Positions 12,950 through 52,563 are shown, numbered from the stretch's first letter. The stretch: DNA of 52,563 nucleotides from Planctomycetota bacterium (GCA_026991575.1 JALXBF010000115.1:1-52563); one strand, 5' to 3'. The notes: generated by a model from the letters alone, not told the origin. Program-made: numbers and translations.

Positions 12950-13751
12950 AGGTCTCCTCCAGGCTTGCTCCACGCTGCCTGGCCCTGGCACACCTTGCCG
13001 ATGCCGGTGGGGTGCACACCAGTCGCAGCGCCGTTTCTCACGCGGAGGCGGGCGGGGATCCAGAAGCATGCACTCCCATTATCGTCCGGCCCGCCTGGTC
13101 AATCAACATAGGATCATGCGTCCGATGCGACCCAGCCGCATGCACCCACCGGCCCCGATCGGCAGAATTGCTGAGGGGATCGATCGTACGTCCGGTCGTC
13201 CCGATCGGCCACGTGCGTAATCGCAGATGAGCGCGGCAACGGGCGGCCCGCTACGTGTTCCTCCCCGAACGCTGACCCCAGCCGTTTGCCGGATATGCTA
13301 GCGCTAACGCCTAGCGCGAACGCCGCAGCGGAACTAGGTTCCGATGCCCTGCAGATCCGCTGCCCGCACCGTCTGCGGTTCCAATCAGCACTTGCGCACA
13401 ACCTTCTGCGGCTGGTTTCTCGACAGGCAGGCAAGGGGCCGGCAGGGGCCAGACCAAGGCTGGGCTGGGCCCGGCCGAGTCGGCATCTATCCGGGCGGCC
13501 ATCCTGTCCCGGCGTTCCGGGGAAGGAAGAGACTGCTGCCTGGCCCACCGAGCGGACAGGGCTTTGCACCGAACCACGGTCGGTGTTCTGCTCGGCACCC
13601 GAGCAGCCCGCATGCGCTCGACGGGGGTGTCGCTTGCCCAGGGCCTTCCAGGTACAGTGCAAGCCCGATCGGTAGCTGTGCGCACTTAGGCCGGCGACTG
13701 GCTATGATTTAGTGGGGCGGACGTGTGGTTGCCACGTGACGAGGTCTGTGC

Positions 13752-15209
13752 ATGGCAGCAACGGCGCAGCCGGTAAGCGATAGCGATCAGCTCACCGAGA
13801 CCGTTTCCGTTCTGATCGTTGACGACGACGCTGCGTTTCGCAGCCTTGTGGCTCGTCGGCTGGCGCGGCGCGGTTACGCGGTGCAGGATGCGCCGGACGC
13901 TGAGACTGCCCTGGCGATGGCCCGGGAGCGACATTTCGACGTTGCAATTCTGGACATCGCTCTGCCCGGCATGGACGGAGTGCAGCTGCTGGAGCAGCTC
14001 CGTATCGTGGACCCCGATACACAAGCCATCATGCTGACAGGGCATGCCACGGTGGAGACGGCCATCCGGGCGATGAAGCTGGGGGCGTACGACTACCTGA
14101 CCAAGCCGTGCGAACTTGCGGAGCTGGAGCTGCACGTGCAGCGGGCGTACGAGAGGCTGCGGCTGGCGCGCGAGAACGACGCCTTGCGCACAGCGCTGCG
14201 ACGCAGCGAGCACAGCCTGGAGATCGTCGGGGACAGCCCGGCGATCCGGCAGGTGCTGCATATGATCTCGCGCGTGGCGCCCACGGACAGCCCGGTGCTG
14301 ATTCTGGGCGAAAGTGGCACCGGCAAGGAGCTGGTGGCGCGGGCCATCCACCGAGCGAGCAAACGTGCCCACCGCCCGATGGTGGTCATCAACTGCGCCG
14401 CATTGCAGGAAACGCTGCTCGAAAGCGAGCTGTTCGGGCATGAGCGCGGCGCGTTCACCTCGGCCGTGACCAGCAAGCCGGGCCTTTTTGAGCTGGCCAA
14501 CGGCGGCACGCTATTCATTGACGAGGTCGGCGAGATGGCTGCCAGCGTGCAGGCGAAGCTGCTGAGGGTGCTGGAGGACGGGTCCTTCCGACGCGTGGGG
14601 TCGGTAAAGGAAATCCGGGTCAACGTCCGCATCATTGCGGCGACCAACAAGGACCTGGCGGCCGAGGTGGCCGAGAAGCGGTTCCGTGATGACCTGTACT
14701 TCCGGCTCAACGTGATCACGATCCACGTGCCACCGTTGCGTGAGAGGCGTAGCGACATCCCGCTGCTTGTCCGCCACTTTCTGCAACGTGACCCGCGCGG
14801 CCCTCGGCACATCGAGCCCGAGGCCATGCAGAGGCTGATTGAGTACGACTGGCCGGGCAACGTGCGGGAACTGGCAAACGTGATCGAGCGGGCAAAGATC
14901 CTGTGTGACGGGGAGGTGATCACAGTTCAGGACCTGCCCCCGGACATCATCCACCGCCGCTCGCTGCTGCCCGGTGCCAATCGCCCTGTAGTCGTGCCGG
15001 GAGCTAGTTCGGCGATTCCGACGCCGTCTTCTGCAGTGCAGCCCGGCAACGGCGCTTCGACGCTGGCAGAGATCGAAAAGGCGCACATTGTCAGCGCCCT
15101 GGAACGGCACGGCTGGAACAAAGCTCAGGCCGCGCGCGCCTTGGGCATCAGCCGCCGCCGGCTCTATCGACTGATCGAAAAGTACGGTATCACACGCCGC
15201 CCGTCATAG
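13752..15209 (+). CDS. Sigma-54-dependent response regulator (NtrC/AtoC family: REC-AAA+-Fis HTH)
   Basis: VDDD..ILD receiver, GESGTGKE Walker A, ESELFGHERGAFTSA, FIDE, DLYFRL, WPGNVREL, NKAQAARALGISRRRLY. Confidence 0.95.
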   Translation: MAATAQPVSDSDQLTETVSVLIVDDDAAFRSLVARRLARRGYAVQDAPDAETALAMARERHFDVAILDIALPGMDGVQLLEQLRIVDPDTQAIMLTGHATVETAIRAMKLGAYDYLTKPCELAELELHVQRAYERLRLARENDALRTALRRSEHSLEIVGDSPAIRQVLHMISRVAPTDSPVLILGESGTGKELVARAIHRASKRAHRPMVVINCAALQETLLESELFGHERGAFTSAVTSKPGLFELANGGTLFIDEVGEMAASVQAKLLRVLEDGSFRRVGSVKEIRVNVRIIAATNKDLAAEVAEKRFRDDLYFRLNVITIHVPPLRERRSDIPLLVRHFLQRDPRGPRHIEPEAMQRLIEYDWPGNVRELANVIERAKILCDGEVITVQDLPPDIIHRRSLLPGANRPVVVPGASSAIPTPSSAVQPGNGASTLAEIEKAHIVSALERHGWNKAQAARALGISRRRLYRLIEKYGITRRPS

Positions 15210-18151: not shown

Positions 18152-19468
18152 TCATCCGTACACGACCAACTTCTCCGTAAACGGAACAGCCATCCCCTCC
18201 TTGGAGCGGTGCCTGATGTACACGGCTCGATCACCTGGCCGACGAACGGAAACGTACATCTCGATGGTCATCTCCTTGGTGCCGGGAGTCAGATCGACCA
18301 CGACCTGACCCTCCGGGACGTTGCTAAGCCACTGATCTCTTAGCCCTTGCTGAGCCTCCACGAGCCGATCAGGGCTATCGAACTCGCAGAACACCCAGCG
18401 AGGTGACCGGGCAATCAAGCCTCTGGAGAAGCGTGCCACAAGGTCCCGAATCTCCTCGGCCTTCTGCCTCATGTTCTGCGTGTACAGCAGCAGCACCCGG
18501 TCCGGCTGTGTGGCGACGACGCTATAGAAAGCCGAAGCAGCGTTGCCGCTGGCGATCGTGACCAGCGTGTCCGCCGACTGCTGGCCCGTCTGCTGCAGCC
18601 ACTGCTCCCGCAACGCTGCAGCAACGCGGGGCATTACGACCCGCTGATAGTACGCCCTGGCTTTCTCATACTGTCCGGACGAAATCAGACGATCGAAGTA
18701 CTTTTGATGCTCTTGCGGCGGGGCGTCGGCTCGCGGGGCGGGCGGAAAGAGGTCCTTGCACGCCCGGAGCACCTCCCGAAGATCACGGTGCCGGCAGCTT
18801 AGCGAAACGATCTTCAACTCAGCACCCAGTTCTGCGCGCTTCCGCTCCGCTTCTTCTCGATTGAGCTCCGGAACCAGCAGTCGCTCTGCGCCGAGCTCCA
18901 CCGCAAGCTCGACCTTCTGAGGGATTCCCTTCACCGGAAGCACGCCAGACTCAGGGGACCACTCACCCGTGGCAAGACAGCGCAGCGGAGCCTCCAGCGT
19001 ATCCGCAACATCCAACAACGCGATCGCCGCGGGAACCCACCCGGACTCCCATCGCACCAGACTTGCGTCTGTCAGCAGCTCCACCGCCTCTTTCGATACC
19101 CCCTCGGGGGCACATAGGCGCCAGCCAGGCACGTCGAGGCTTCGGCTGACGCGGTCACCGAACGGCAGCACCAGACCGTCATCAGCTGCACCCGCCCGGC
19201 GCCACACAACCGGCAGCGCAATAGCCTGCCGCAGCAGCGGCACCTCCGCCAGCAGCACAAACAGAATCGCAGTGCGCCCTTCCCCGGTTGCTTCGGCCAG
19301 GTCCATCCTGTGGCTGTTGCCAAAGAGTTCATCCAGCCGGCGGAGCGCAGCCGGACACAAGATCCAGACACTCCACGGGCCGAAGGCTCGGGCAACCTGC
19401 GTTAACCGGCCCGGGGTCAACGCATCCAGTTCGGTATCGACTAGACGCAAGAGATCCGATCGAGTCAT
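18152..19468 (-). CDS. Lon-type (S16) protease domain fused to a C-terminal CARF-like domain, no AAA+ module (copy 1)
   Basis: WESGWVPAAIALL...LATGEW...GVLPVKGIPQKVELA..LGAERLLVPELN. Ser codon 19043-19045 and Lys codon 18914-18916 are 43 residues apart. The C-terminal ~140 aa has TLVTIASG..PDRVLLLYT..VVVDLTPGTK..AVYI. Start could be GTG 19540. Confidence 0.8.
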   Translation of the reverse strand: MTRSDLLRLVDTELDALTPGRLTQVARAFGPWSVWILCPAALRRLDELFGNSHRMDLAEATGEGRTAILFVLLAEVPLLRQAIALPVVWRRAGAADDGLVLPFGDRVSRSLDVPGWRLCAPEGVSKEAVELLTDASLVRWESGWVPAAIALLDVADTLEAPLRCLATGEWSPESGVLPVKGIPQKVELAVELGAERLLVPELNREEAERKRAELGAELKIVSLSCRHRDLREVLRACKDLFPPAPRADAPPQEHQKYFDRLISSGQYEKARAYYQRVVMPRVAAALREQWLQQTGQQSADTLVTIASGNAASAFYSVVATQPDRVLLLYTQNMRQKAEEIRDLVARFSRGLIARSPRWVFCEFDSPDRLVEAQQGLRDQWLSNVPEGQVVVDLTPGTKEMTIEMYVSVRRPGDRAVYIRHRSKEGMAVPFTEKLVVYG

Positions 19469-19584
19469 CGGAGTGCTCTTGCTCCGCTTCGATTGTTCCC
19501 CCGTTGTCGCCGGCGACAGCTCTCGTCCTCGAGATACCACTCGCCGGCCACCCCCGTGCGCTTACTGTCGTTACGCCAACAGTG

Positions 19585-20757
19585 TCAGCCTGTCGATTCA
19601 GGCCTCTCGTCCTGTTCGACCACACGCTGGGCTTCGCGCAGGGCGTCCAGGTCCGGCGGCCACTCCAGCGGCTCTGTTCCCGGTATGCTCACCTCAAGCC
19701 GCACCGGGGTGTCTTCAGCCAGTTGCCGGCGAAGTTCACGGACTGAGAACGAACAACGGCCTGATTCGTCGATGGTGGTCGTGACGCCGGCCAGTCGAAC
19801 CAGGCCCCCGGCCAGTTCCGTCGCCTCACTGCCGTCCGAATGGCGCACGAACAGCATTCGGATCTCGTCTTCGTCGCTCAGCGGATAACGGATTCTGCTC
19901 TCGGCACGGTACCGCCGCTGTGGATCGTGCCAGACGAGCCAGACCGGGATCCCGGTTCCGCGAGCAGCGGCTCGCACGGTGATGAGACCTGGCGGAAAAC
20001 GGGGATACTCCGGCTCGGGCCGTGGGGGCTCCATTGCGTAGACTACCGCTTCCGCCTCTGCGGCGGTGGCAGCGGCTGCCGTGAGCCGAGCGGTTAGCTG
20101 CTGCAGATCGCGTTCAACGTCACGTGCCAGGGCCTCGGCTGCTTCATCCAGGCCCGGCCCCAGCCACCACGGGGTCTCGTGGGCGTACTCGGGCACGATC
20201 GCGTCGCGCCAGCGCTTCAGCAGCGGGTTGCCGCGAACGGTGCACAAAACGTCGACCTGCTCACGCAGCGCTCGGTCGTACTCATTGAGCGCATCAGTCA
20301 GGCGCCCGACCAGCCCCAGGAACTCCTCATCGGTCACTTCCCCTGCGTCGACCGCCTCAAGCAGTCTGTGTGTCAGCCCGGTATAGACCGCCTGGGCTTC
20401 CATGCGGTTGACGAGCGCGTCCAGACAGAGCTGTTCGCGCCGGGTGAAGTCCTCTTCCGCATCCCACTGCTGGCCGAGCTTACGGGCCTGGTCGGCAAAC
20501 GCCAGAAAGGCTTCGGTGGCTTGGGCCGTACCTAGTCGAACCAGGTGCAACGGGATCTGGCCAGGCAGCTGGTCCTGGGCAACCCCGAACAGAAGACACT
20601 CGCCCAGTGCTCGGGCCGCCGTGTAAGCGACGCGACGAGCCTCTGCGTCGTCCGTGGTCGGTTCGGTCACGGCCTGGTGTCGGAGTGCCTCAGCCAGTTC
20701 CCGTAACGGGGAAGCCGTCAATTGTTCACGCAGTCGCTGGATCTCTTCTGTGTTCAT
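19585..20757 (-). CDS. Uncharacterised protein, putative anti-sigma factor/protease substrate (copy 1)
   Basis: Long ORF with GGAG RBS lying between the sigma-like and Lon-CARF genes. Its C-terminal domain is visibly homologous to that of 50959-52140. Function is inferred from context only. Confidence 0.6.
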   Translation of the reverse strand: MNTEEIQRLREQLTASPLRELAEALRHQAVTEPTTDDAEARRVAYTAARALGECLLFGVAQDQLPGQIPLHLVRLGTAQATEAFLAFADQARKLGQQWDAEEDFTRREQLCLDALVNRMEAQAVYTGLTHRLLEAVDAGEVTDEEFLGLVGRLTDALNEYDRALREQVDVLCTVRGNPLLKRWRDAIVPEYAHETPWWLGPGLDEAAEALARDVERDLQQLTARLTAAAATAAEAEAVVYAMEPPRPEPEYPRFPPGLITVRAAARGTGIPVWLVWHDPQRRYRAESRIRYPLSDEDEIRMLFVRHSDGSEATELAGGLVRLAGVTTTIDESGRCSFSVRELRRQLAEDTPVRLEVSIPGTEPLEWPPDLDALREAQRVVEQDERPESTG

Positions 20758-21023
20758 GGCTGCTCCGGCGGAAAATCCGCGTTTCCAAGACAAACCGTTC
20801 CAAACCAACCGGTCGGGGTCAGTTCAGCCACTGCCTCTGCCTGCATTTGTTACGACCCAGGGCGCAGACTCCTGACAGGAACCAGCCGCCACGTCTGCCG
20901 GGAGTCGCCGGCGGAGCCGGTCGCTTCCGGTCCTTGCCAGCCTGCCGGTACCATGGGCGGCGGCATGTGCACGTCGTGCTTCCGTCACGATGGCTGCCTC
21001 TGGGGTAACGTGACCGGTGCGCG

Positions 21024-21791
21024 TCAGCCGCGCAAGTTCTCGCGGAGTTCCTGAATCGCTTTAAGCTGCAGGAGATATCGCTTCTTCCGGCTCCACACGG
21101 CGTGCACCACAGCGGGGGAAACGCCTAGTTCCTGAGCCAGCGCCGTAGCGCGTCCGTGTTCCCACCCGGGATGGTCCAGATGAGGGGGTGGAAAGGATGC
21201 CGGGAGCTTGGCTTCGCTGCACCACTGGGCCCACACGACCGCTGGCACCTTGCGGTGCATTCCGGCCAGCACAAGCAGGATGATCCGGTCGCGTACCGGG
21301 ACCGACGCGAGAACTTCCAGGTCGTGCTGGCAAAACGGCTCGTTGCGTGCGGCGGTTTCGGCCGGTCCTGGAGCCGGGTCGTGCGGATCAAGGTGCGGGG
21401 CAGAACCGCCGTCATCGTGTTTGCGACCACCGCCGGTTGCAAGCTGCTCCCAGGACAGCTCTCGTCTTCTTTTCTTGACGAGATCGAGCAGGGCATTCTT
21501 CAGCACCCGGCGCGCCCAACCGACGAAGGGACTGCCGGCGCTGGGATTGTACGCTCCCTGCAGTACCTTCACCATCGCGTCCTGAACAACGTCCTCAAGC
21601 GTGGCGTCGTCGAAGCGGTTGCCGAAATGCAGTGCGTTCAGCATTCGCGACACCTGCATGAGCGCGTCGCGTACCCGGAGCGCAGCCGCGTCCTCTTGAT
21701 GCGGTGAAGCAGTTGGGTTGAGCAAAGTGGATACGGCAGCGTGTAACGCCGTTTGCTGCCCGGATGTCTGTTGCCCTTGACCCGCTGCCAT
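21024..21791 (-). CDS. ECF-like sigma-70 family sigma factor (copy 1)
   Basis: Region 2: LEDVVQDAMVKVL..YNPSAGSPFVGWARRVLKNALLDLVKKRRR. Region 4-like: LASVPVRDRIILL and ALAQELGVSPAVVHAVWSRKKRYL. Start could be GTG 21803. Confidence 0.8.
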   Translation of the reverse strand: MAAGQGQQTSGQQTALHAAVSTLLNPTASPHQEDAAALRVRDALMQVSRMLNALHFGNRFDDATLEDVVQDAMVKVLQGAYNPSAGSPFVGWARRVLKNALLDLVKKRRRELSWEQLATGGGRKHDDGGSAPHLDPHDPAPGPAETAARNEPFCQHDLEVLASVPVRDRIILLVLAGMHRKVPAVVWAQWCSEAKLPASFPPPHLDHPGWEHGRATALAQELGVSPAVVHAVWSRKKRYLLQLKAIQELRENLRG

Positions 21792-21996
21792 TGGAACTCC
21801 CACGTTCTCTCAGCGCAACCGTCCGCATCAGTGAGTACAAGCCGGGGGTTCAGCGTGCCACCACAGAGGCTGGCCACGCGATCGGCTGCCCTGTCGCGGC
21901 CGACAGCAACAGCAGGCCGTTCCCGGGTGCCCGACTGCCTGTCTCGCGGGCGTGACGCGTTCGGGTTTGCTTGCCCCGCGACCGAAGGCGCCCGCT

Positions 21997-47298: not shown

Positions 47299-48004
47299 CG
47301 TCAGCGGACCTCCACGCGATGAGTTCCCTCGTTGATGTATCCTACCGCCTCCATGCAAATTAACTCTCTACCCCATCCTAGCTCGTTTGCCTGCCGATGT
47401 TGTTCTTCTGGCCCGTCACGCAGGGGGATGGCAGACGTACTCCGGCGTGCGCCGGCGAGAACAACCGCGGTACGAGCAGTCGTCGCTACCTTTGCCAAGG
47501 CACACGGTGAGAACGGTAGCGTGCTCGAGGCAGGTCAACGCGCCCGTCCAGATCAGGCACACCGTTGGAACCGGGCGCAGCGTACGGAAGGAAGCTCTCG
47601 GGACAATGGTACGGCCTGCGATTCCGTGGCGGCTATTCGGCACAGTTGGACGGGCCAGCAGGCGTGGTTACCGGAGAGCTTTGCCCGGTTCGGTTTCTCA
47701 AAGGTAGGCGCAGATCGTTGGCAAGCAGGGAGAGGGCCTGCGTGCGCGTTGTCACCGGCGCGCGCGGCCGACGCGTTGGGACAGCGAACGTGTGCGGGGA
47801 CGGGAGCTTGCGCGGCTGGGTGAGTGCTGAGGCTTTGCCGACTCCCGCACCGAAGCTCGCGGCCATGGCAGAGCAGGTCGTTGCTGCTCGCTCGGACTCA
47901 GCCCCCTGAGTAGAAGCCCGCTTGGCGGCTCGTCGCCCCCTCCCGGTGAGGGCTGCCTATGGCCGTGCCTGCGGAAGCTCAACCAGGTCGGTGCACAACG
48001 TAAA

Positions 48005-49483
48005 ATGAACCACTTCCGTACTGCTGTTCGCCAGGTCGCGCCGGACAGAACATCTGGTCGACGCACAATGCATGGGGTCACGATTTCAAGGGAGACGTTC
48101 GATTCCCTCGCGGAGCTTGCCGAAGAATACGGCCGTCGTCCCCGGTTGCGGCCATACATCGCAGAGAAGGCCTGTGATCTGGTGCAAGCCTTCGCTCCGT
48201 GGTGGCTAACGGCCGAGGCCCTGGCACAGGCCAGCCGCAGTGGTACTCCGCCCGCAGATGCGGTGGATCCTGCAAGGTTCACCACTCACGGCCTGGCCCG
48301 CATCCTTTGCCTGTGGCCGACGGCACTGGCCGCGACCATCGAACGAACGGCACCCGCGCGGGACGGTGCTCGCTTGTTACGCGACGCTTGCGTCTTGCCC
48401 GTGCGGTGGGTTCTTGGTGCTTCGCGGCCTGTCAATCCTCTTCCCGATCCACTGGCTCAACTCGCTGAGACTGTCCGATGCGAACTACGGGAAGTCGGCC
48501 TGTTGGCGCACGGCCAGGAAGTCACCCTGGAGTGGTGCCTGGGCCCCTATCGCTTGAAGAGCCCCATCGAGTTCTGTGATGTACAGCTAAGTCTTGCGTC
48601 CGGCTTCGTCCCTTTGGCCTCGGCACTGATTGTGGCAGCGAACGGAGGCGAGCCTGCCGTGGGCGTGTGGTCCACGGGAGCGTGGAACGCGGAGTTCAAC
48701 TTTTGCGAGAACGTGGACGGCGTGCCGCAAAAGGTGCGGACAGCGCTTTCGTTTGGTGCCGAACACGTTTTCGTCCCCTCCGGAAACTACCACGAAGCAG
48801 CAAGGGAAGCAGCCAGGCCCGAGCAGGTGCATGCGCTGGCCGTGGGGCCATCGCTGGACCGAGTGCTCGCGCCGCTGTTGGTGGCCTATCGGGCAGAGCC
48901 ACCTGCCAACGCCTCCTACGAGGAGAAACGCGCGTACTACGTGTACACAGCCGAGTACGATCCGTCGCGCGCACGACGGTACTACGACCGGGCACTCCTG
49001 GAAGACGTCGCGGCCCGAGTGACGCAACGGATGGATGCCCAGCTTTGCTCGCTTGTGGAAGGCCGCTGCGCTCTGGTAACCGTGGCCAGCCAGAGTCCAG
49101 GTGTCGTGTTGCTGGCGGCTTTGGTATTCCGCCCTTGCCGAATCGTGCTCGTGTACGACGATGCGCAGGCCGCCAAGCAGGTGAATGACGAACTGAGGCA
49201 ACGCGGTTACAGCAACGTGGTATGCCTGAGGCTGGACGAAGACCATTTGGGCACAGTGAGGCAGCTCGCCGCAAAGATCAACGAGTGCACAGCGGGCCTG
49301 CCTGTCATCATTGACCTGACTCCGGGTAGCAAGAGCCACACGCTTGCGCTCTACCGGGCACCTGTACAACGGGCCCATCGCGTCTATCTGAGGAACCGCT
49401 GGACCCAGCCGTCCCGAAAGGGGGCGCGGGGGATCGAGGACCCCGACACGATGCAATACGTGACGGTGACAGACGACCAGTAG
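48005..49483 (+). CDS. Lon-type (S16) protease domain fused to a C-terminal CARF-like domain, no AAA+ module (copy 2)
   Basis: LASGFVPLASALI...WSTGAW...VDGVPQKVRTA..FGAEHVFVPSGN. Ser codon 48599-48601 and Lys codon 48731-48733 are 44 residues apart. C-terminal ALVTVASQ..PCRIVLVY..IIDLTPGSK..RVYL. Start may be ATG 48068. Confidence 0.78.
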   Translation: MNHFRTAVRQVAPDRTSGRRTMHGVTISRETFDSLAELAEEYGRRPRLRPYIAEKACDLVQAFAPWWLTAEALAQASRSGTPPADAVDPARFTTHGLARILCLWPTALAATIERTAPARDGARLLRDACVLPVRWVLGASRPVNPLPDPLAQLAETVRCELREVGLLAHGQEVTLEWCLGPYRLKSPIEFCDVQLSLASGFVPLASALIVAANGGEPAVGVWSTGAWNAEFNFCENVDGVPQKVRTALSFGAEHVFVPSGNYHEAAREAARPEQVHALAVGPSLDRVLAPLLVAYRAEPPANASYEEKRAYYVYTAEYDPSRARRYYDRALLEDVAARVTQRMDAQLCSLVEGRCALVTVASQSPGVVLLAALVFRPCRIVLVYDDAQAAKQVNDELRQRGYSNVVCLRLDEDHLGTVRQLAAKINECTAGLPVIIDLTPGSKSHTLALYRAPVQRAHRVYLRNRWTQPSRKGARGIEDPDTMQYVTVTDDQ

Positions 49484-49573
49484 CTGCTGGTGCCACGGCC
49501 TCCAGAGGCTACGGGATCGACTGCTGGGACACCAGAACGGGGTGGCGTCGGTAGCGTAGCAGAGCAGAAGGTG

Positions 49574-50605
49574 ATGAGTGAGACCACACTTTACGGCTAC
49601 ACCTGCGAACAGTTGCAGAATCTCATCACGCGCGCCCGCAGCCTGGAAGACAACGACGCAGTCAGCGAGTTGCAGGGGCTGCTGACGAGGCTCGTGGAGA
49701 GTTTCCTCACGGGAGTTCCAGTGCCCCCCGGTCATTCCAGCGTAGAGTTCCAGAAATTCTTGGCGTTAGAGATCGTCCAAGAGCTCCTCTGCCATATCGT
49801 CTGGCCGCGGTCAGACGGTCGATACGCTTTCGACATCGGAAAAATGGACTCTGTCGACTCGCTGCGGGCGTGGGTCAGGGAGTGCGTGCGGCGGTGGCGC
49901 CGCAGGCAAGGCAGCGAGCGCCGCGTGAAACGGTTCACGGATCTGAAACGGGACGACAACGACGACGACACGGAACCGCCCAGCGTCAGTTTGGTTGATC
50001 CGAAGAGTCGACACCCGGTCGAAGCGATCGAACCGGACCCTCCGGCCCGGTACGTGTCCATCATGGGGTGCCTTTTTGATATCACCCAGTGGGCCGCGAG
50101 GCGACTGGCCAGCAAGAAATCGCTTGCGCAGGAATGGGTTGTTCGCTATTGGTTGTACGTCCGGCTGCGCTTGTACCAGCTGCTCTGTCGCCATGAGGAG
50201 AAGACGGTACGGCGCCCCTTGATTCTCCGCCTGGCCGAACGGTACATACCGTGGGATCCAGCCGTGGAGAACGTACCGTTGGCCAGGGACTGGCCAACGC
50301 TGGGGATGTGCTGGCAAGGCTTCGCCCGCCGAGCGGAAAGGCAGGAGACCTACGCGCAAACCTGCCTCATTGAGACCGTGTACGACCATCGCGCAGCGCA
50401 GGAGCCTTTCTCGGCTACGGACGAAGAGGCGGTGAAGAGAGCGATTCGAAATCAATGGGACCAGTGGTGCAGCCGGCTGCGCCGGCACCTCAAGGAGGCA
50501 GTAAGCGGTGTCTGCCCCTGGCACGAACCGGACGATACTCAACGCCAGGCTATGGAACTCTGGCACGCCGTTGCCTTTGGGGTACCGGAACGAGCCACCG
50601 AGTGA
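49574..50605 (+). CDS. Highly divergent ECF-like sigma factor (copy 2)
   Basis: Region-2-like EIVQELL..AFD..SLRAWVRECVRRWRRR, acidic linker, and C-terminal NQWDQWCSRLRRHL resembling copy-1 AVWSRKKRYL; same module context. Confidence 0.55.
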   Translation: MSETTLYGYTCEQLQNLITRARSLEDNDAVSELQGLLTRLVESFLTGVPVPPGHSSVEFQKFLALEIVQELLCHIVWPRSDGRYAFDIGKMDSVDSLRAWVRECVRRWRRRQGSERRVKRFTDLKRDDNDDDTEPPSVSLVDPKSRHPVEAIEPDPPARYVSIMGCLFDITQWAARRLASKKSLAQEWVVRYWLYVRLRLYQLLCRHEEKTVRRPLILRLAERYIPWDPAVENVPLARDWPTLGMCWQGFARRAERQETYAQTCLIETVYDHRAAQEPFSATDEEAVKRAIRNQWDQWCSRLRRHLKEAVSGVCPWHEPDDTQRQAMELWHAVAFGVPERATE

Positions 50606-50958
50606 GTCGTAAAACGTTGAAGATGCCCCGGGGCGGTCTCAGCCGCGTTGCGCTTCCGTGTCAACAGCACTCGGCCCGGAAGGGTCAGAGCCGGTGGCAA
50701 CGATTGGACACCGCCTCTGCGGGTGGCCAGCATGGTTGGGAACCCGCCAGGAGGACCGGCGAGCGGTGTCGCATGAGGCCGTGGTCACGCTGAGGCGTCG
50801 AGTGGGAGCACGGCTGATGCGTCAGAAAACGCCGCGCTCTGCCCTATGAGGATGGAGAGGTGTACTGCCGGGCCTGCCCCGGCCTCTTCACGGTTCGGAA
50901 GGAGCCGGCCAAGTGTTATCAGACGTGGAAGGATCGTTACAGAGCGGAGCGACACAAG

Positions 50959-52140
50959 ATGGCTTCAATGAGAGTCGAGGCACAGCTGGCACGCCTGCAC
51001 AGCGAGTTCAACGTAGTCCTGCCCGATCCGGCCCGTTTGCTGCGCTGCTGGATCACAGAGTTCACGGAACTGTTGCCCAGGTTGCCCGAAGCGCTTGATG
51101 GGGACGATCCCACAGTTGCGCGGCGGCTGCTTACGTCCTGGGCTCGTCTCATGCGTGCCAAGCCCGCGCTTGTTGCGGCGGCTGCCGGCAGGCCACCTGA
51201 GCCAGGCGGGGGGGTGGCAGAGCAACTCGGGCTTCCGGAGCTGGCCGCGTGGGAGAGGCGTCTGCGAGATGAGCACATGGCGGCACTCGTTGAGAGGGCG
51301 AAGGCCACGGCCAACCCGAAGGCCTGGTCGGAGAGGCTCCAGGTGCTTCGCCGCGCCGTGGATGCGGCCGAGGAACCTGAGGACCTGCCGGATCGTACCG
51401 TCGAGCTTCTCAACGATCTGGACGAGCAGGAACTCCTCGACGCCTGCGCCGTGTACGCAGGCAGAACCGACCTGTCCTCGGAGGCGCTACTCGGTGTGCT
51501 CCGGGCTGCGGTGTGCGCGGAGGTTGACCTGTTCCTGCCGGCACGCGAGTACGTTCTTGAGGTCGCCCAAACACTACCGGGTGAACCCACGCACGCGGCG
51601 TTCGCTCCAACGTACTCGAAGTTCGAAGCGATCCTGGACGAGATTCTGGCAGCTGAACTGTTCGCCGAGGGACCGGCCGCGCCATCCTGGTTCCGAACCG
51701 AGCAACTCTTGGCCGAGACCATGCTGATCGGGATTGTCGCCGCCCTGCTGGAAGCGTATCGAGCCCAGCGGCCGGCGGTCCTGGCCGCTGCTGGTGAAGC
51801 CGAACGCGAAGAGTACCGCTCGGCACTCTGGCTCAGCCCTGATAAGCGGTTTGTGGCGCAACTGAGATGGGCACCTGCGGATGCGGCGCGACGCAAGCTG
51901 CCGATCCTCTTTCGCCACGCCTCGATGGTCCAGCGGCAAGTAGTACCGACAGATGCTGCCAGTGAGCTGGCGGGTGCCCGCGTTGAGTTCGCCGGTGCGA
52001 CGGCCGTCATCGACGAGCAGGCGACGGCCTGGTTTGACGTGGATGCGCTTGCGCCGGTCGAGAAAGAGCGAAGCTGGCAACTTGCCCGGCTGGTCGTGCG
52101 CCGCAACGGAACGACAGAGACGTGGACTTTGACCAAGTAG
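50959..52140 (+). CDS. Uncharacterised protein, putative anti-sigma factor/protease substrate (copy 2)
   Basis: Long ORF. C-terminal LAAAG..LWLSPDKRF..ILFRH..ASELAGARVEFAG..IDEQ..F matches the C-terminus of 19585-20757. Confidence 0.6.
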   Translation: MASMRVEAQLARLHSEFNVVLPDPARLLRCWITEFTELLPRLPEALDGDDPTVARRLLTSWARLMRAKPALVAAAAGRPPEPGGGVAEQLGLPELAAWERRLRDEHMAALVERAKATANPKAWSERLQVLRRAVDAAEEPEDLPDRTVELLNDLDEQELLDACAVYAGRTDLSSEALLGVLRAAVCAEVDLFLPAREYVLEVAQTLPGEPTHAAFAPTYSKFEAILDEILAAELFAEGPAAPSWFRTEQLLAETMLIGIVAALLEAYRAQRPAVLAAAGEAEREEYRSALWLSPDKRFVAQLRWAPADAARRKLPILFRHASMVQRQVVPTDAASELAGARVEFAGATAVIDEQATAWFDVDALAPVEKERSWQLARLVVRRNGTTETWTLTK

Positions 52141-52215
52141 CCGACAGTGTCCGGAGCGCCGCGCTATGAGAGGCCAGTTCAGCTTCTGGGTTTAGAAGCT
52201 TCGGGGGGAGAGCCC

Positions 52216-52563
52216 CACGGCTGACGCACTTCAAATCGTGGGCAGGGAGCCCGTACAGAGCAGTTCTAGCAGATCGTTCGGGTTGGACGCGAGTCGCAAG
52301 CGAACGGAGTCAATGCTTTCCTCGGGACCGATTGCACCTCGGAGTAAGGACAACGCTAATCGGTTTACCAATGCCATATTCTGTGCCGACACGAGATGCC
52401 GAATGCGCATCTGGTCCTCGCGAAATGAAACATCCGAAACCCAGTGCAGCTGGTTCTCGATCGACCAGTGGTTTCGAATCACCTTCGCATGGAGCTCAGC
52501 ATCCGGCTCGGCGCTGGATACGTAGTAACGTACCTGCTCTGTCCTACGCCCAGACGACAGATG
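52216..52563 (-). mobile_element. ISAs1 family insertion sequence, 3' end (transposase C-terminus 52231->52563; probable terminal inverted repeat 52216-52228)
   Basis: RYYVSS..IRNHWSIENQLHWVSDVSFREDQMRIR signature of ISAs1 transposases. CACGGCTGACGCA just past the stop resembles ISAs1-type ends. Confidence 0.88.

Follow-up and report, generated by a model that had tools for sequence, protein, structure and literature searches.

A CARF-Lon protease encoded with a sigma-like protein and a candidate anti-sigma partner in a planctomycete carrying a type III-D CRISPR system

The three genes and their products

The window analysed here is the whole of a 52.6-kb contig (52,563 nucleotides; C115, JALXBF010000115.1:1-52563) from a Planctomycetota bacterium (GCA_026991575.1), whose assembly (4.96 Mb, 191 contigs, 64% G+C, planctomycete-type) is 97.8% complete and is referred to below as genome G000; C-numbers denote its contigs, L-numbers denote loci, and G401, G330, and G082 are other genomes. 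Positions 48005-52140 of the + strand carry three intact open reading frames (ORFs) with normal third-position G+C, hereafter copy B, which encode a protease that joins a Lon domain to a CARF domain and has no ATPase domain (LonB), a sigma-like protein (SigB-like), and a partner protein (ParB). LonB (48005..49483) comprises 492 aa; its relatives align from about residue 22, and translation may actually begin at the ATG at 48068. SigB-like (49574..50605) comprises 343 aa in its database version, with the frame open from a GTG at 49490 (371 aa), and ParB (50959..52140) comprises 393 aa, with the frame open from a GTG at 50860 (426 aa). As only 6 to 90 nt separate the LonB stop codon from the SigB-like frame, these two genes are probably co-transcribed; a scan of 47300-52563 for promoter and terminator consensus sequences gave no more matches than expected by chance, and none before LonB (47359-48004). 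A second set of three ORFs, copy A, occupies 18152-21803 on the - strand, 26.2 kb upstream of copy B, and consists of SigA (21024..21803), ParA (19585..20808), and LonA (18152..19540), in the order sigma, partner, Lon rather than Lon, sigma, partner. The initial annotation had described the same three components on the opposite strand, about 26 kb away and in a different order, and the ORFs at both loci confirm this arrangement.

In LonB, a helical N-terminal part is followed by Lon S16 and CARF domains, the latter at the C-terminus, and the protein matches the PADLOC model PDLC01981 ('CARF_m2--CARF_LON') with an E-value of 2.2e-67, residues 40-467 falling on model positions 8-392 of 408. LonA (E 2.3e-81, in addition to a Pfam CARF_Card1 match at E 0.001) and LonC, a third protease of the genome (E 6e-77), likewise match this model over its full length, which places all three in the CARF-Lon family (CARF_m2). 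Pfam and NCBIfam scans revealed no AAA+ ATPase domain in LonB or LonA. An alignment of seven CARF-Lon sequences from five genomes or contigs leaves few invariant positions, among them Ser199 (codon 48599..48601, +) and Lys243 (codon 48731..48733, +, within GVPQKV), the candidate catalytic serine and lysine of the Lon dyad, as well as T439, G441, and K443 of the CARF loop DLTPGSK (residues 437-443; 49313..49333, +); each is conserved in all seven sequences. In the A. fulgidus Lon chains 1z0e and 1z0c, the position of Ser199 is occupied by the serine of 'GDSAS', which we take to be the catalytic serine of that enzyme, and in 1z0e the position of Lys243 is occupied by the K of 'GGVTQKIEAA'. The profile made from the seven sequences matches the archaeal Lon protease domain 1z0e (E 1.1e-8) and the CARF domain of Csm6 (5fsh, E 1.1e-6), as well as those of Cam1, Crn1, Can2, and Card1, while LonB residues ~320-468 match the Csx1 and CARF models of PADLOC and the region of the CARF loop matches CARF models of Csx1, Csm6, and Can1. 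To judge from its sequence, LonB is a CARF-Lon protein with a Ser-Lys dyad and is predicted to be catalytic.

SigB-like comprises a sigma region 2 of the extracytoplasmic function (ECF) type (residues ~5-126), a disordered linker (128-155), and a helical C-terminal domain (157-335). As a single sequence it finds no match in Pfam, PADLOC, or the PDB sequences; a word-indexed homologue search returned one relative, and the ESM Atlas offered unnamed clusters only, one of which carries Sigma70_r2 on 13% of its members. A search of 1.84 billion proteins with a profile of five relatives, in turn, retrieved 176 representatives at E ≤ 1e-3. Of 66 family representatives drawn from the best 150 of these 176 matches, 21 hit Pfam Sigma70_r2 at E ≤ 0.01, and 11 reach its curated 24-bit cut-off. 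A 65-sequence family profile matches 22 PDB sequences at E < 1e-3, all of them sigma factors and nearly all ECF (best match R. sphaeroides SigE, 2q1z, E 1.1e-11), and the consensus over the 65 members is that of a typical ECF region 2. In structural comparison with VIA-align, the AlphaFold (AF2) model of SigB-like (predicted local distance difference test, pLDDT, 85.4) gave sigma region-2 structures in all of the first 11 rows (Z 8.3-6.9), with 9m84_F (Z 8.3, root-mean-square deviation (rmsd) 4.2, 98 aligned) and 8x6g_H (Z 8.0, rmsd 2.7, 89 aligned) at the top; only the region-2 domain was recovered in this way, and a Foldseek search with the whole model returned no match. A region-2 fold is thus present at 49574-50605 by both VIA-align and profile comparison, the initial annotation having staked its reading of this gene on a sigma fold.

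ParB is modelled by AF2 (pLDDT 83.8) as a helical N-terminal domain (residues 1 to about 270-285), a low-confidence linker (277-285), and a beta-rich C-terminal domain (288-393). It has no match in Pfam, PADLOC, NCBIfam, or the PDB sequences and no usable match in the ESM Atlas; the Pfam, PADLOC, and NCBIfam scans indicate no enzymatic or membrane signature, and Foldseek returned nothing for the model at E ≤ 0.001. The family is very rare in databases, with two close relatives outside G000 in word-indexed searches (one found by sequence, one more by alignment). The C-terminal domain (51820..52137, +) is common to the ParA and ParB families by hhalign and is proposed as a docking domain for the protease, and the motif VLAAA (residues 274-278; 51778..51792, +), at the edge of the low-confidence stretch, is proposed as the cleavage site.

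That SigB-like binds ParB is supported by structure prediction. Their modelled complex attains a median score of 0.83, against 0.03 for the best of three controls; of 157 solved complexes 116 come up to this level, as do 2 of 215 mismatched pairs, counts that hold only roughly here because custom alignments were used. The runs share at least 69% of their contacts, with a partner pLDDT of at least 83, and the predicted interface involves SigB-like residues 21-34, 69-80, and 158-340 and ParB residues 120-257 and 369-376. In the model, the helical domain of ParB touches both region 2 and the C-terminal domain of SigB-like, and the ParB loop 238-251, disordered in the free model, belongs to the interface. 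Anti-sigma domains contact both halves of their sigma factor, and ParB is proposed here to be an anti-sigma factor and the substrate of the protease, that is, probably the captor of the sigma-like protein.

Kinship and age of the two copies

The initial annotation regarded copy B as a reshuffled paralogous copy of the other module, and this is not borne out in so simple a form, homology being complete for the proteases only. LonA and LonB are homologous throughout, with 88 identities in 293 positions (30%; BLASTP E 6e-21), and the five collinear blocks that had been pointed out between them, LLRQAIALPVVW/LLRDACVLPVRW, GIPQKV/GVPQKV, ARAYYQR/ARRYYDR, LVTIAS/LVTVAS, and DLTPGTK/DLTPGSK, are all aligned column for column in the seven-sequence alignment; the GxPQKV block contains the invariant Lon lysine, and the DLTPGxK block is the invariant CARF loop. 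For the other two pairs, pairwise comparison is insufficient and profiles are needed: ParB and ParA share a local BLASTP match only (76 aa, E 9e-6), and that between SigB-like and SigA is not significant (E 0.17). SigA itself is recognised by Pfam Sigma70_r2 (E 2.9e-9) and TIGR02937 (E 1.2e-8), and hhalign relates the SigB and SigA families over 123 columns (98.4%, E 5.8e-15, with the 65-sequence profile; 97.3% in another run), the shallower comparison of five against three sequences being weak (19.5%). Homology of the C-terminal halves was considered and found unsupported (2.7%), and the two sigma-like proteins share, as far as profiles can tell, only the ECF sigma region 2. Likewise, the partner families align over 94 columns (97.9%, E 3.8e-13) that correspond to the C-terminal domain of about 100 aa, in which they are 23-33% identical across families, and homology of their N-terminal ~270 aa is unsupported (0.3%).

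The modelled complex lends this pattern a possible meaning. The parts that touch one another in the model, the partner N-terminal domain and the sigma C-terminal domain, are those that have diverged beyond recognition between copies A and B, and the parts that are conserved (sigma region 2, the partner C-terminal domain, and the linker) are those that would be expected to face common machinery. Because the diverged parts are the ones predicted to be in contact, insulation of the two cascades at the sigma/partner contact is plausible, as far as a model can indicate; the shared partner C-terminal domain, in turn, may permit cross-cleavage between the copies.

The phylogeny of the proteases argues against a reshuffled duplicate. 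When 11 CARF-Lon proteins are placed in a maximum-likelihood tree, LonB falls into one group with LonC and the G401 protease (support 100/99), LonC being sister to the latter (98/96). LonA, identical to no other sequence by more than 27%, lies outside on a long branch of its own, without a resolved placement. As LonB is closer to LonC and to the G401 protease than to LonA, copies A and B are two old subtypes rather than products of a local duplication, and the window bears no sign of a recent one. The split between LonB and LonC predates that between G000 and G401.

Recurrence and connections to CRISPR loci

Modules of the same composition occur elsewhere. A search for related loci with a four-sequence protease alignment yielded three loci in genomes and six in metagenomes, and CARF-Lon genes are found in four of the 401 Planctomycetota genomes searched. 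A B-type module is present in G401 (L022), the sole other genome of the same family among those compared, where genes for a SigB-like protein, a 279-aa ORF, a ParB-like protein, and a CARF-Lon protein stand in a row; ParB itself is found in two of 61 relatives. A-type modules are present in G330, on three near-identical metagenome contigs, at L033 and L035, and on a Gemmataceae contig (L029), and outside G000 their layout is SigA-like, a gene of about 250 aa, ParA-like, and CARF-Lon; on L028, a Thermogutta contig, the module breaks off within the partner gene, at the contig end. Every other module seen is ordered sigma, partner, protease, and copy B alone is reordered. The profile of the partner C-terminal domain (A9) finds members in two of the 401 Planctomycetota genomes, six copies in G000 and one in G330, both of which hold CARF-Lon. 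Recurrence of the trio in other genomes, co-occurrence of the C-terminal domain with CARF-Lon, and the controlled complex model together support the view, already advanced in the initial annotation, that the three genes form one functional unit.

The additional gene of about 250 aa lies between sigma and partner in all A-type modules outside G000 (L024 11523-12293, -; L029 3988-4713, +; L031 2772-3542, +; L033 189-956; L035 2673-3563) and has no PADLOC match. As it has no homologue anywhere in G000, copy A of the window is a reduced form.

Counting of further copies in G000, which the initial annotation had proposed, gives three CARF-Lon proteases, six partners, and four sigma-like genes of the two families. 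Several of these lie among CRISPR genes. The type III-D system of G000, on C32, comprises cas10, cas7, csx10, cas11, and three more cas7 genes; its Cas10 (549 aa) has a GGDD motif at residue 294 and no HD domain, and the system is by this criterion predicted to be competent for signalling. The effector operon (L008/L006; 4971-19182 of the contig) ends with a ParB-like gene (13289-14863), which is followed by that of a 1366-aa MkoA-like helicase. On C96, genes for a SigB-like protein, a ParB-like protein, a reverse transcriptase (RT), cas1, and cas2 are followed on one strand by a CRISPR array (L002 2609-9489, -; 30571-38488 of the contig), and G000 holds three further arrays with the same repeat. 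Because the SigB-like/ParB-like pair stands directly upstream of RT-cas1-cas2, the adaptation genes of the type III system may be under the control of a sigma/partner switch. On C117 (L003 2486-5851), the gene for a 707-aa CARF9-HEPN (Csx1-like) protein precedes a ParB-like gene whose product is 57% identical to ParB of the window, with no sigma-like or Lon gene beside it. The ends of C12 and C34 overlap by exactly 127 nt, and joining them places a second SigA-like gene (L005 7995-8729) before a second ParA-like gene (L004 11630-12907), with no protease downstream of the pair. LonC (C183, L001 4500-9670) has no partner beside it and stands head to head with an ECF sigma gene (Pfam Sigma70_ECF) and that of a Ser/Thr kinase with TPR repeats.

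A proposed proteolytic switch and its alternatives

The composition of the module recalls the CalpL-CalpT-CalpS system, in which an ATPase-less Lon protease is likewise fused to a sensor of the cyclic oligoadenylate (cOA) type, its gene being accompanied by those of a partner with two domains and of a sigma factor related to the ECF type. According to the preprint, CalpL is a SAVED-Lon protease that cyclic tetra-adenylate (cA4) switches on and that cuts the anti-sigma factor CalpT within an LAAA linker, whereupon the new LAA end serves as a degron and CalpS, a sigma factor of ECF-like type, is freed (bioRxiv 10.1101/2024.05.08.593097). Like CalpT, the partners have a small C-terminal domain that an Ala-rich linker separates from an N-terminal part that binds the sigma factor, in their case by prediction. 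The differences are nevertheless considerable. The sensor is CARF instead of SAVED (LonB matches CARF models, not SAVED models), so that a dimer is likely rather than the filaments glued by cA4, and PDB searches with CARF-Lon gave no sequence match to CalpL. The partner, unlike CalpT, has about 400 aa and an all-helical N-terminal domain, with no MazF/PemK or DUF2080 match in Pfam at E ≤ 1; the sigma-like protein, unlike CalpS, carries a long private C-terminal domain in place of a recognisable region 4; and the genes of the window, unlike those of the CalpL system, do not adjoin cas genes.

Other precedents exist for the release or processing of a sigma factor by a CRISPR-triggered protease, namely the TPR-CHAT/Csx30/CASP-sigma (Craspase) system of type III-E and the SAVED-CHAT/PCaspase/PCc-sigma system of type III-B. 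These differ in that their proteases are caspase-like cysteine proteases and not Lon, their partners are unrelated, and the III-E Craspase takes its trigger from the effector complex itself, not from a diffusible nucleotide. CASP-sigma has been suggested to act on cas1 (bioRxiv 10.1101/2023.06.23.546230), which brings to mind the position of the sigma/partner pair ahead of RT-cas1-cas2 on C96. The module also resembles pairs of ECF sigma and class I anti-sigma factors (SigE-ChrR, SigW-RsiW, AlgU-MucA) in that region 2 is homologous and the modelled partner contacts both sigma halves; in contrast to those anti-sigma factors, the partner has no anti-sigma signature and no zinc motif and is not membrane-bound, and release would be brought about by a nucleotide-gated cytoplasmic protease.

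CARF-Lon fusions have reportedly figured in lists of type III CRISPR effectors since 2020, when the CARF classification of Makarova and colleagues appeared. In a review, CARF-Lon is a bioinformatic prediction, for which cleavage of essential host proteins or promiscuous activity is guessed, and the passages on it mention no partner or sigma factor (PMC9704534). The 2025 CRISPR classification places Lon-family proteases among cOA effectors, and the word sigma is absent from its main text (PMC12669027). Among the literature searched, no paper ties CARF-Lon to a sigma or anti-sigma factor, a substrate, or an output, with the reservation that the original CARF classification and the Nature paper on CalpL may mention one. 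The module of the window looks like an undescribed, CARF-based cousin of CalpL/CalpT/CalpS with an unrelated partner, present as two old subtypes in a larger network tied to the III-D system.

On balance, we favour, albeit without great confidence, the reading that copy B functions as a signalling module like CalpL/CalpT/CalpS but assembled from other components, in which cOA activates the protease, the partner is cut, and the sigma-like protein is freed. The course of events that we infer by analogy, from ligand binding through cleavage and its site and the degron step to RNA polymerase binding and a regulon, would be as follows. The helical N-terminal domain of ParB would keep SigB-like inactive; upon recognition of phage RNA, the type III-D Cas10 (GGDD, no HD) would make cyclic oligoadenylate, which would bind the CARF domain of LonB, probably as a dimer. 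The Ser199/Lys243 protease, thereby switched on, would engage ParB through the common C-terminal domain and cut the Ala-rich linker (VLAAA). The N-terminal fragment of ParB, now ending in an LAA-type degron, would be removed by housekeeping proteases, and the freed sigma-like protein would redirect RNA polymerase. Copy A would represent another old subtype of this device, in which sigma and anti-sigma have a contact of their own.

Several observations weigh against this scheme. With regard to the parts, sigma region 4 is absent from Pfam scans of SigB-like and its 66 relatives and from the profile search of PDB sequences, the fold search having barely covered residues 157-335, and SigB-like may for this reason not be a complete sigma factor. 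ParB has no similarity to known anti-sigma factors, and a fold search with its model, which barely covered the C-terminal beta domain, returned generic three-helix bundles only, with Z no higher than 8.5 (4hwh_A: Z 8.5, rmsd 3.2, 81 aligned). The linker counts in favour of the scheme, a φ-A-A motif being present 9-20 residues ahead of the W of WxSPD in 13 of the 14 partners from the two families (LAAA, VAAD, RAAAR in ParA, and SVAAE are examples; background 0.17 per 22-aa window) and resembling the site at which CalpT is cut, but these 13 cases are not independent, as they come from Ala-rich proteins of related lineages. With regard to the setting, neither copy in the window adjoins cas genes, the neighbours being smpB and genes for DAHP synthase, transporters, and a glycosyltransferase, together with an insertion sequence (IS) fragment; some III-D Cas10 proteins make SAM-AMP rather than cOA (PMC13294483); and one-to-one wiring is not evident, given three proteases for six partners and four sigma-like genes.

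The last of these points feeds the strongest rival, which overlaps the CalpL-like reading and to which we assign roughly one chance in a handful or slightly better: any of the three CARF-Lon proteases would cut all six partners through the C-terminal domain, so that one signal would free several sigma-like proteins, and copies A and B would then differ in output only. The C-terminal domain and the linker motif are the sole parts of the partners conserved between families, three or four partners (on C32, C96, C117, and C34) have no adjoining protease, and LonC has no adjoining partner. On the other hand, where a protease is present, its own partner adjoins it in other genomes and twice in the window, and the identities of 30% between LonA and LonB and of 23-33% between partner C-terminal domains leave room for private recognition.

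A related and more far-reaching picture, which is speculative although perhaps marginally easier to credit than fully shared cleavage, is that of a multi-branch proteolytic 'bus', in which one III-D signal would act on three CARF-Lon proteases and six partners with a common docking domain and LAA-type linker, each partner caging a private sigma-like protein through a fast-evolving interface; with two of the partners encoded in cas operons, infection would switch on both spacer acquisition and effector expression. If true, this would constitute an undescribed transcriptional arm of CRISPR immunity based on CARF-Lon.

Two further alternatives appear improbable, in about equal measure. According to the first, region 4 has been lost, the sigma-like protein is a chaperone, inhibitor, or adaptor, and the partner or a fragment of it is the real effector released by cleavage. 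The Pfam and profile searches for region 4 fit this proposal, as do the lack of an assigned fold for SigB-like residues 157-335 in the VIA-align search and the partners on C32 and C117 that have no sigma-like neighbour. Against it, region 2 keeps the typical ECF consensus across 65 members; SigA, likewise devoid of a Pfam region-4 match, yet ends in a helix-turn-helix-like stretch; and the partner, which would have to be the effector, shows no enzymatic or membrane signature in the scans mentioned above.

According to the second, copy B is a composite, LonB being the remnant of one sigma-partner-Lon module and SigB-like/ParB the beginning of another whose protease was cut off by an IS. All other modules seen have the order sigma, partner, Lon, and the point past ParB at which a protease gene would be expected is taken up by the contig end and by a truncated IS transposase fragment that bounds the module (DDE_Tnp_1; 52231..52563, -; Pfam E 7.6e-6), which begins 91 nt past ParB and has copies on C27 (97% identity) and C26 (83%). 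LonB is moreover preceded by a non-coding stretch of 646 nt (47359-48004) that has no credible ORF and is unique in the genome. However, the C-terminal-domain profile detects no partner remnant upstream of LonB, the short gap and probable co-transcription join LonB to SigB-like, and no fourth CARF-Lon was found in the G000 assembly, its high completeness notwithstanding.

Least probable of all is a CRISPR-independent role, in which CARF would respond to some other nucleotide, or to a housekeeping signal, and a stress regulon would be under its control: the position of both window copies far from cas genes and among metabolic genes, and of LonC beside an ECF sigma and a Ser/Thr kinase, would suit it, but partner genes lie within the cas effector operon and directly before RT-cas1-cas2, modules in other genomes stand beside Csx1 or other CARF effectors, and the CARF profile matches cA4-binding CARF structures best.

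For the CalpL-like reading, the regular position of CARF-Lon beside a sigma-type protein and a partner that carries the conserved, proposed docking domain and an LAA-type linker provides this protease family with a concrete and testable substrate and output, and it suggests that protease-gated sigma release evolved anew, with another type of sensor and an anti-sigma factor of unrelated kind. With two subtypes, a third protease, and partners in cas operons, the organism would constitute a natural test bed for the specificity and cross-talk of cyclic-nucleotide signalling, and G000 could show whether the interference signal induces CRISPR adaptation.

Some minor observations concern the surroundings of these modules. 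A decayed partner gene was sought upstream of LonB and rejected, as a tblastn match to the C-terminal domain encoded on C117 was weak (E 0.018, in a 1.7-kb database) and the six-frame search with the C-terminal-domain profile was empty. The 279-aa ORF of the G401 module (L022 11636-12475, -) has a 36%-identical homologue in G000 (G000:C170:36042-36791), away from the module genes. In G082, a Csx1-type CARF-HEPN gene lies directly downstream of CARF-Lon (L026, G082:C124, 1574-4296), and in G330 a gene for a CARF_m8 protein adjoins the module (L024 6290-8698). Lastly, a MkoA-like helicase gene, such as that found after the effector operon of C32, lies 3' of the sigma-partner-CARF-Lon module in G401 as well (L022 4281-8279).

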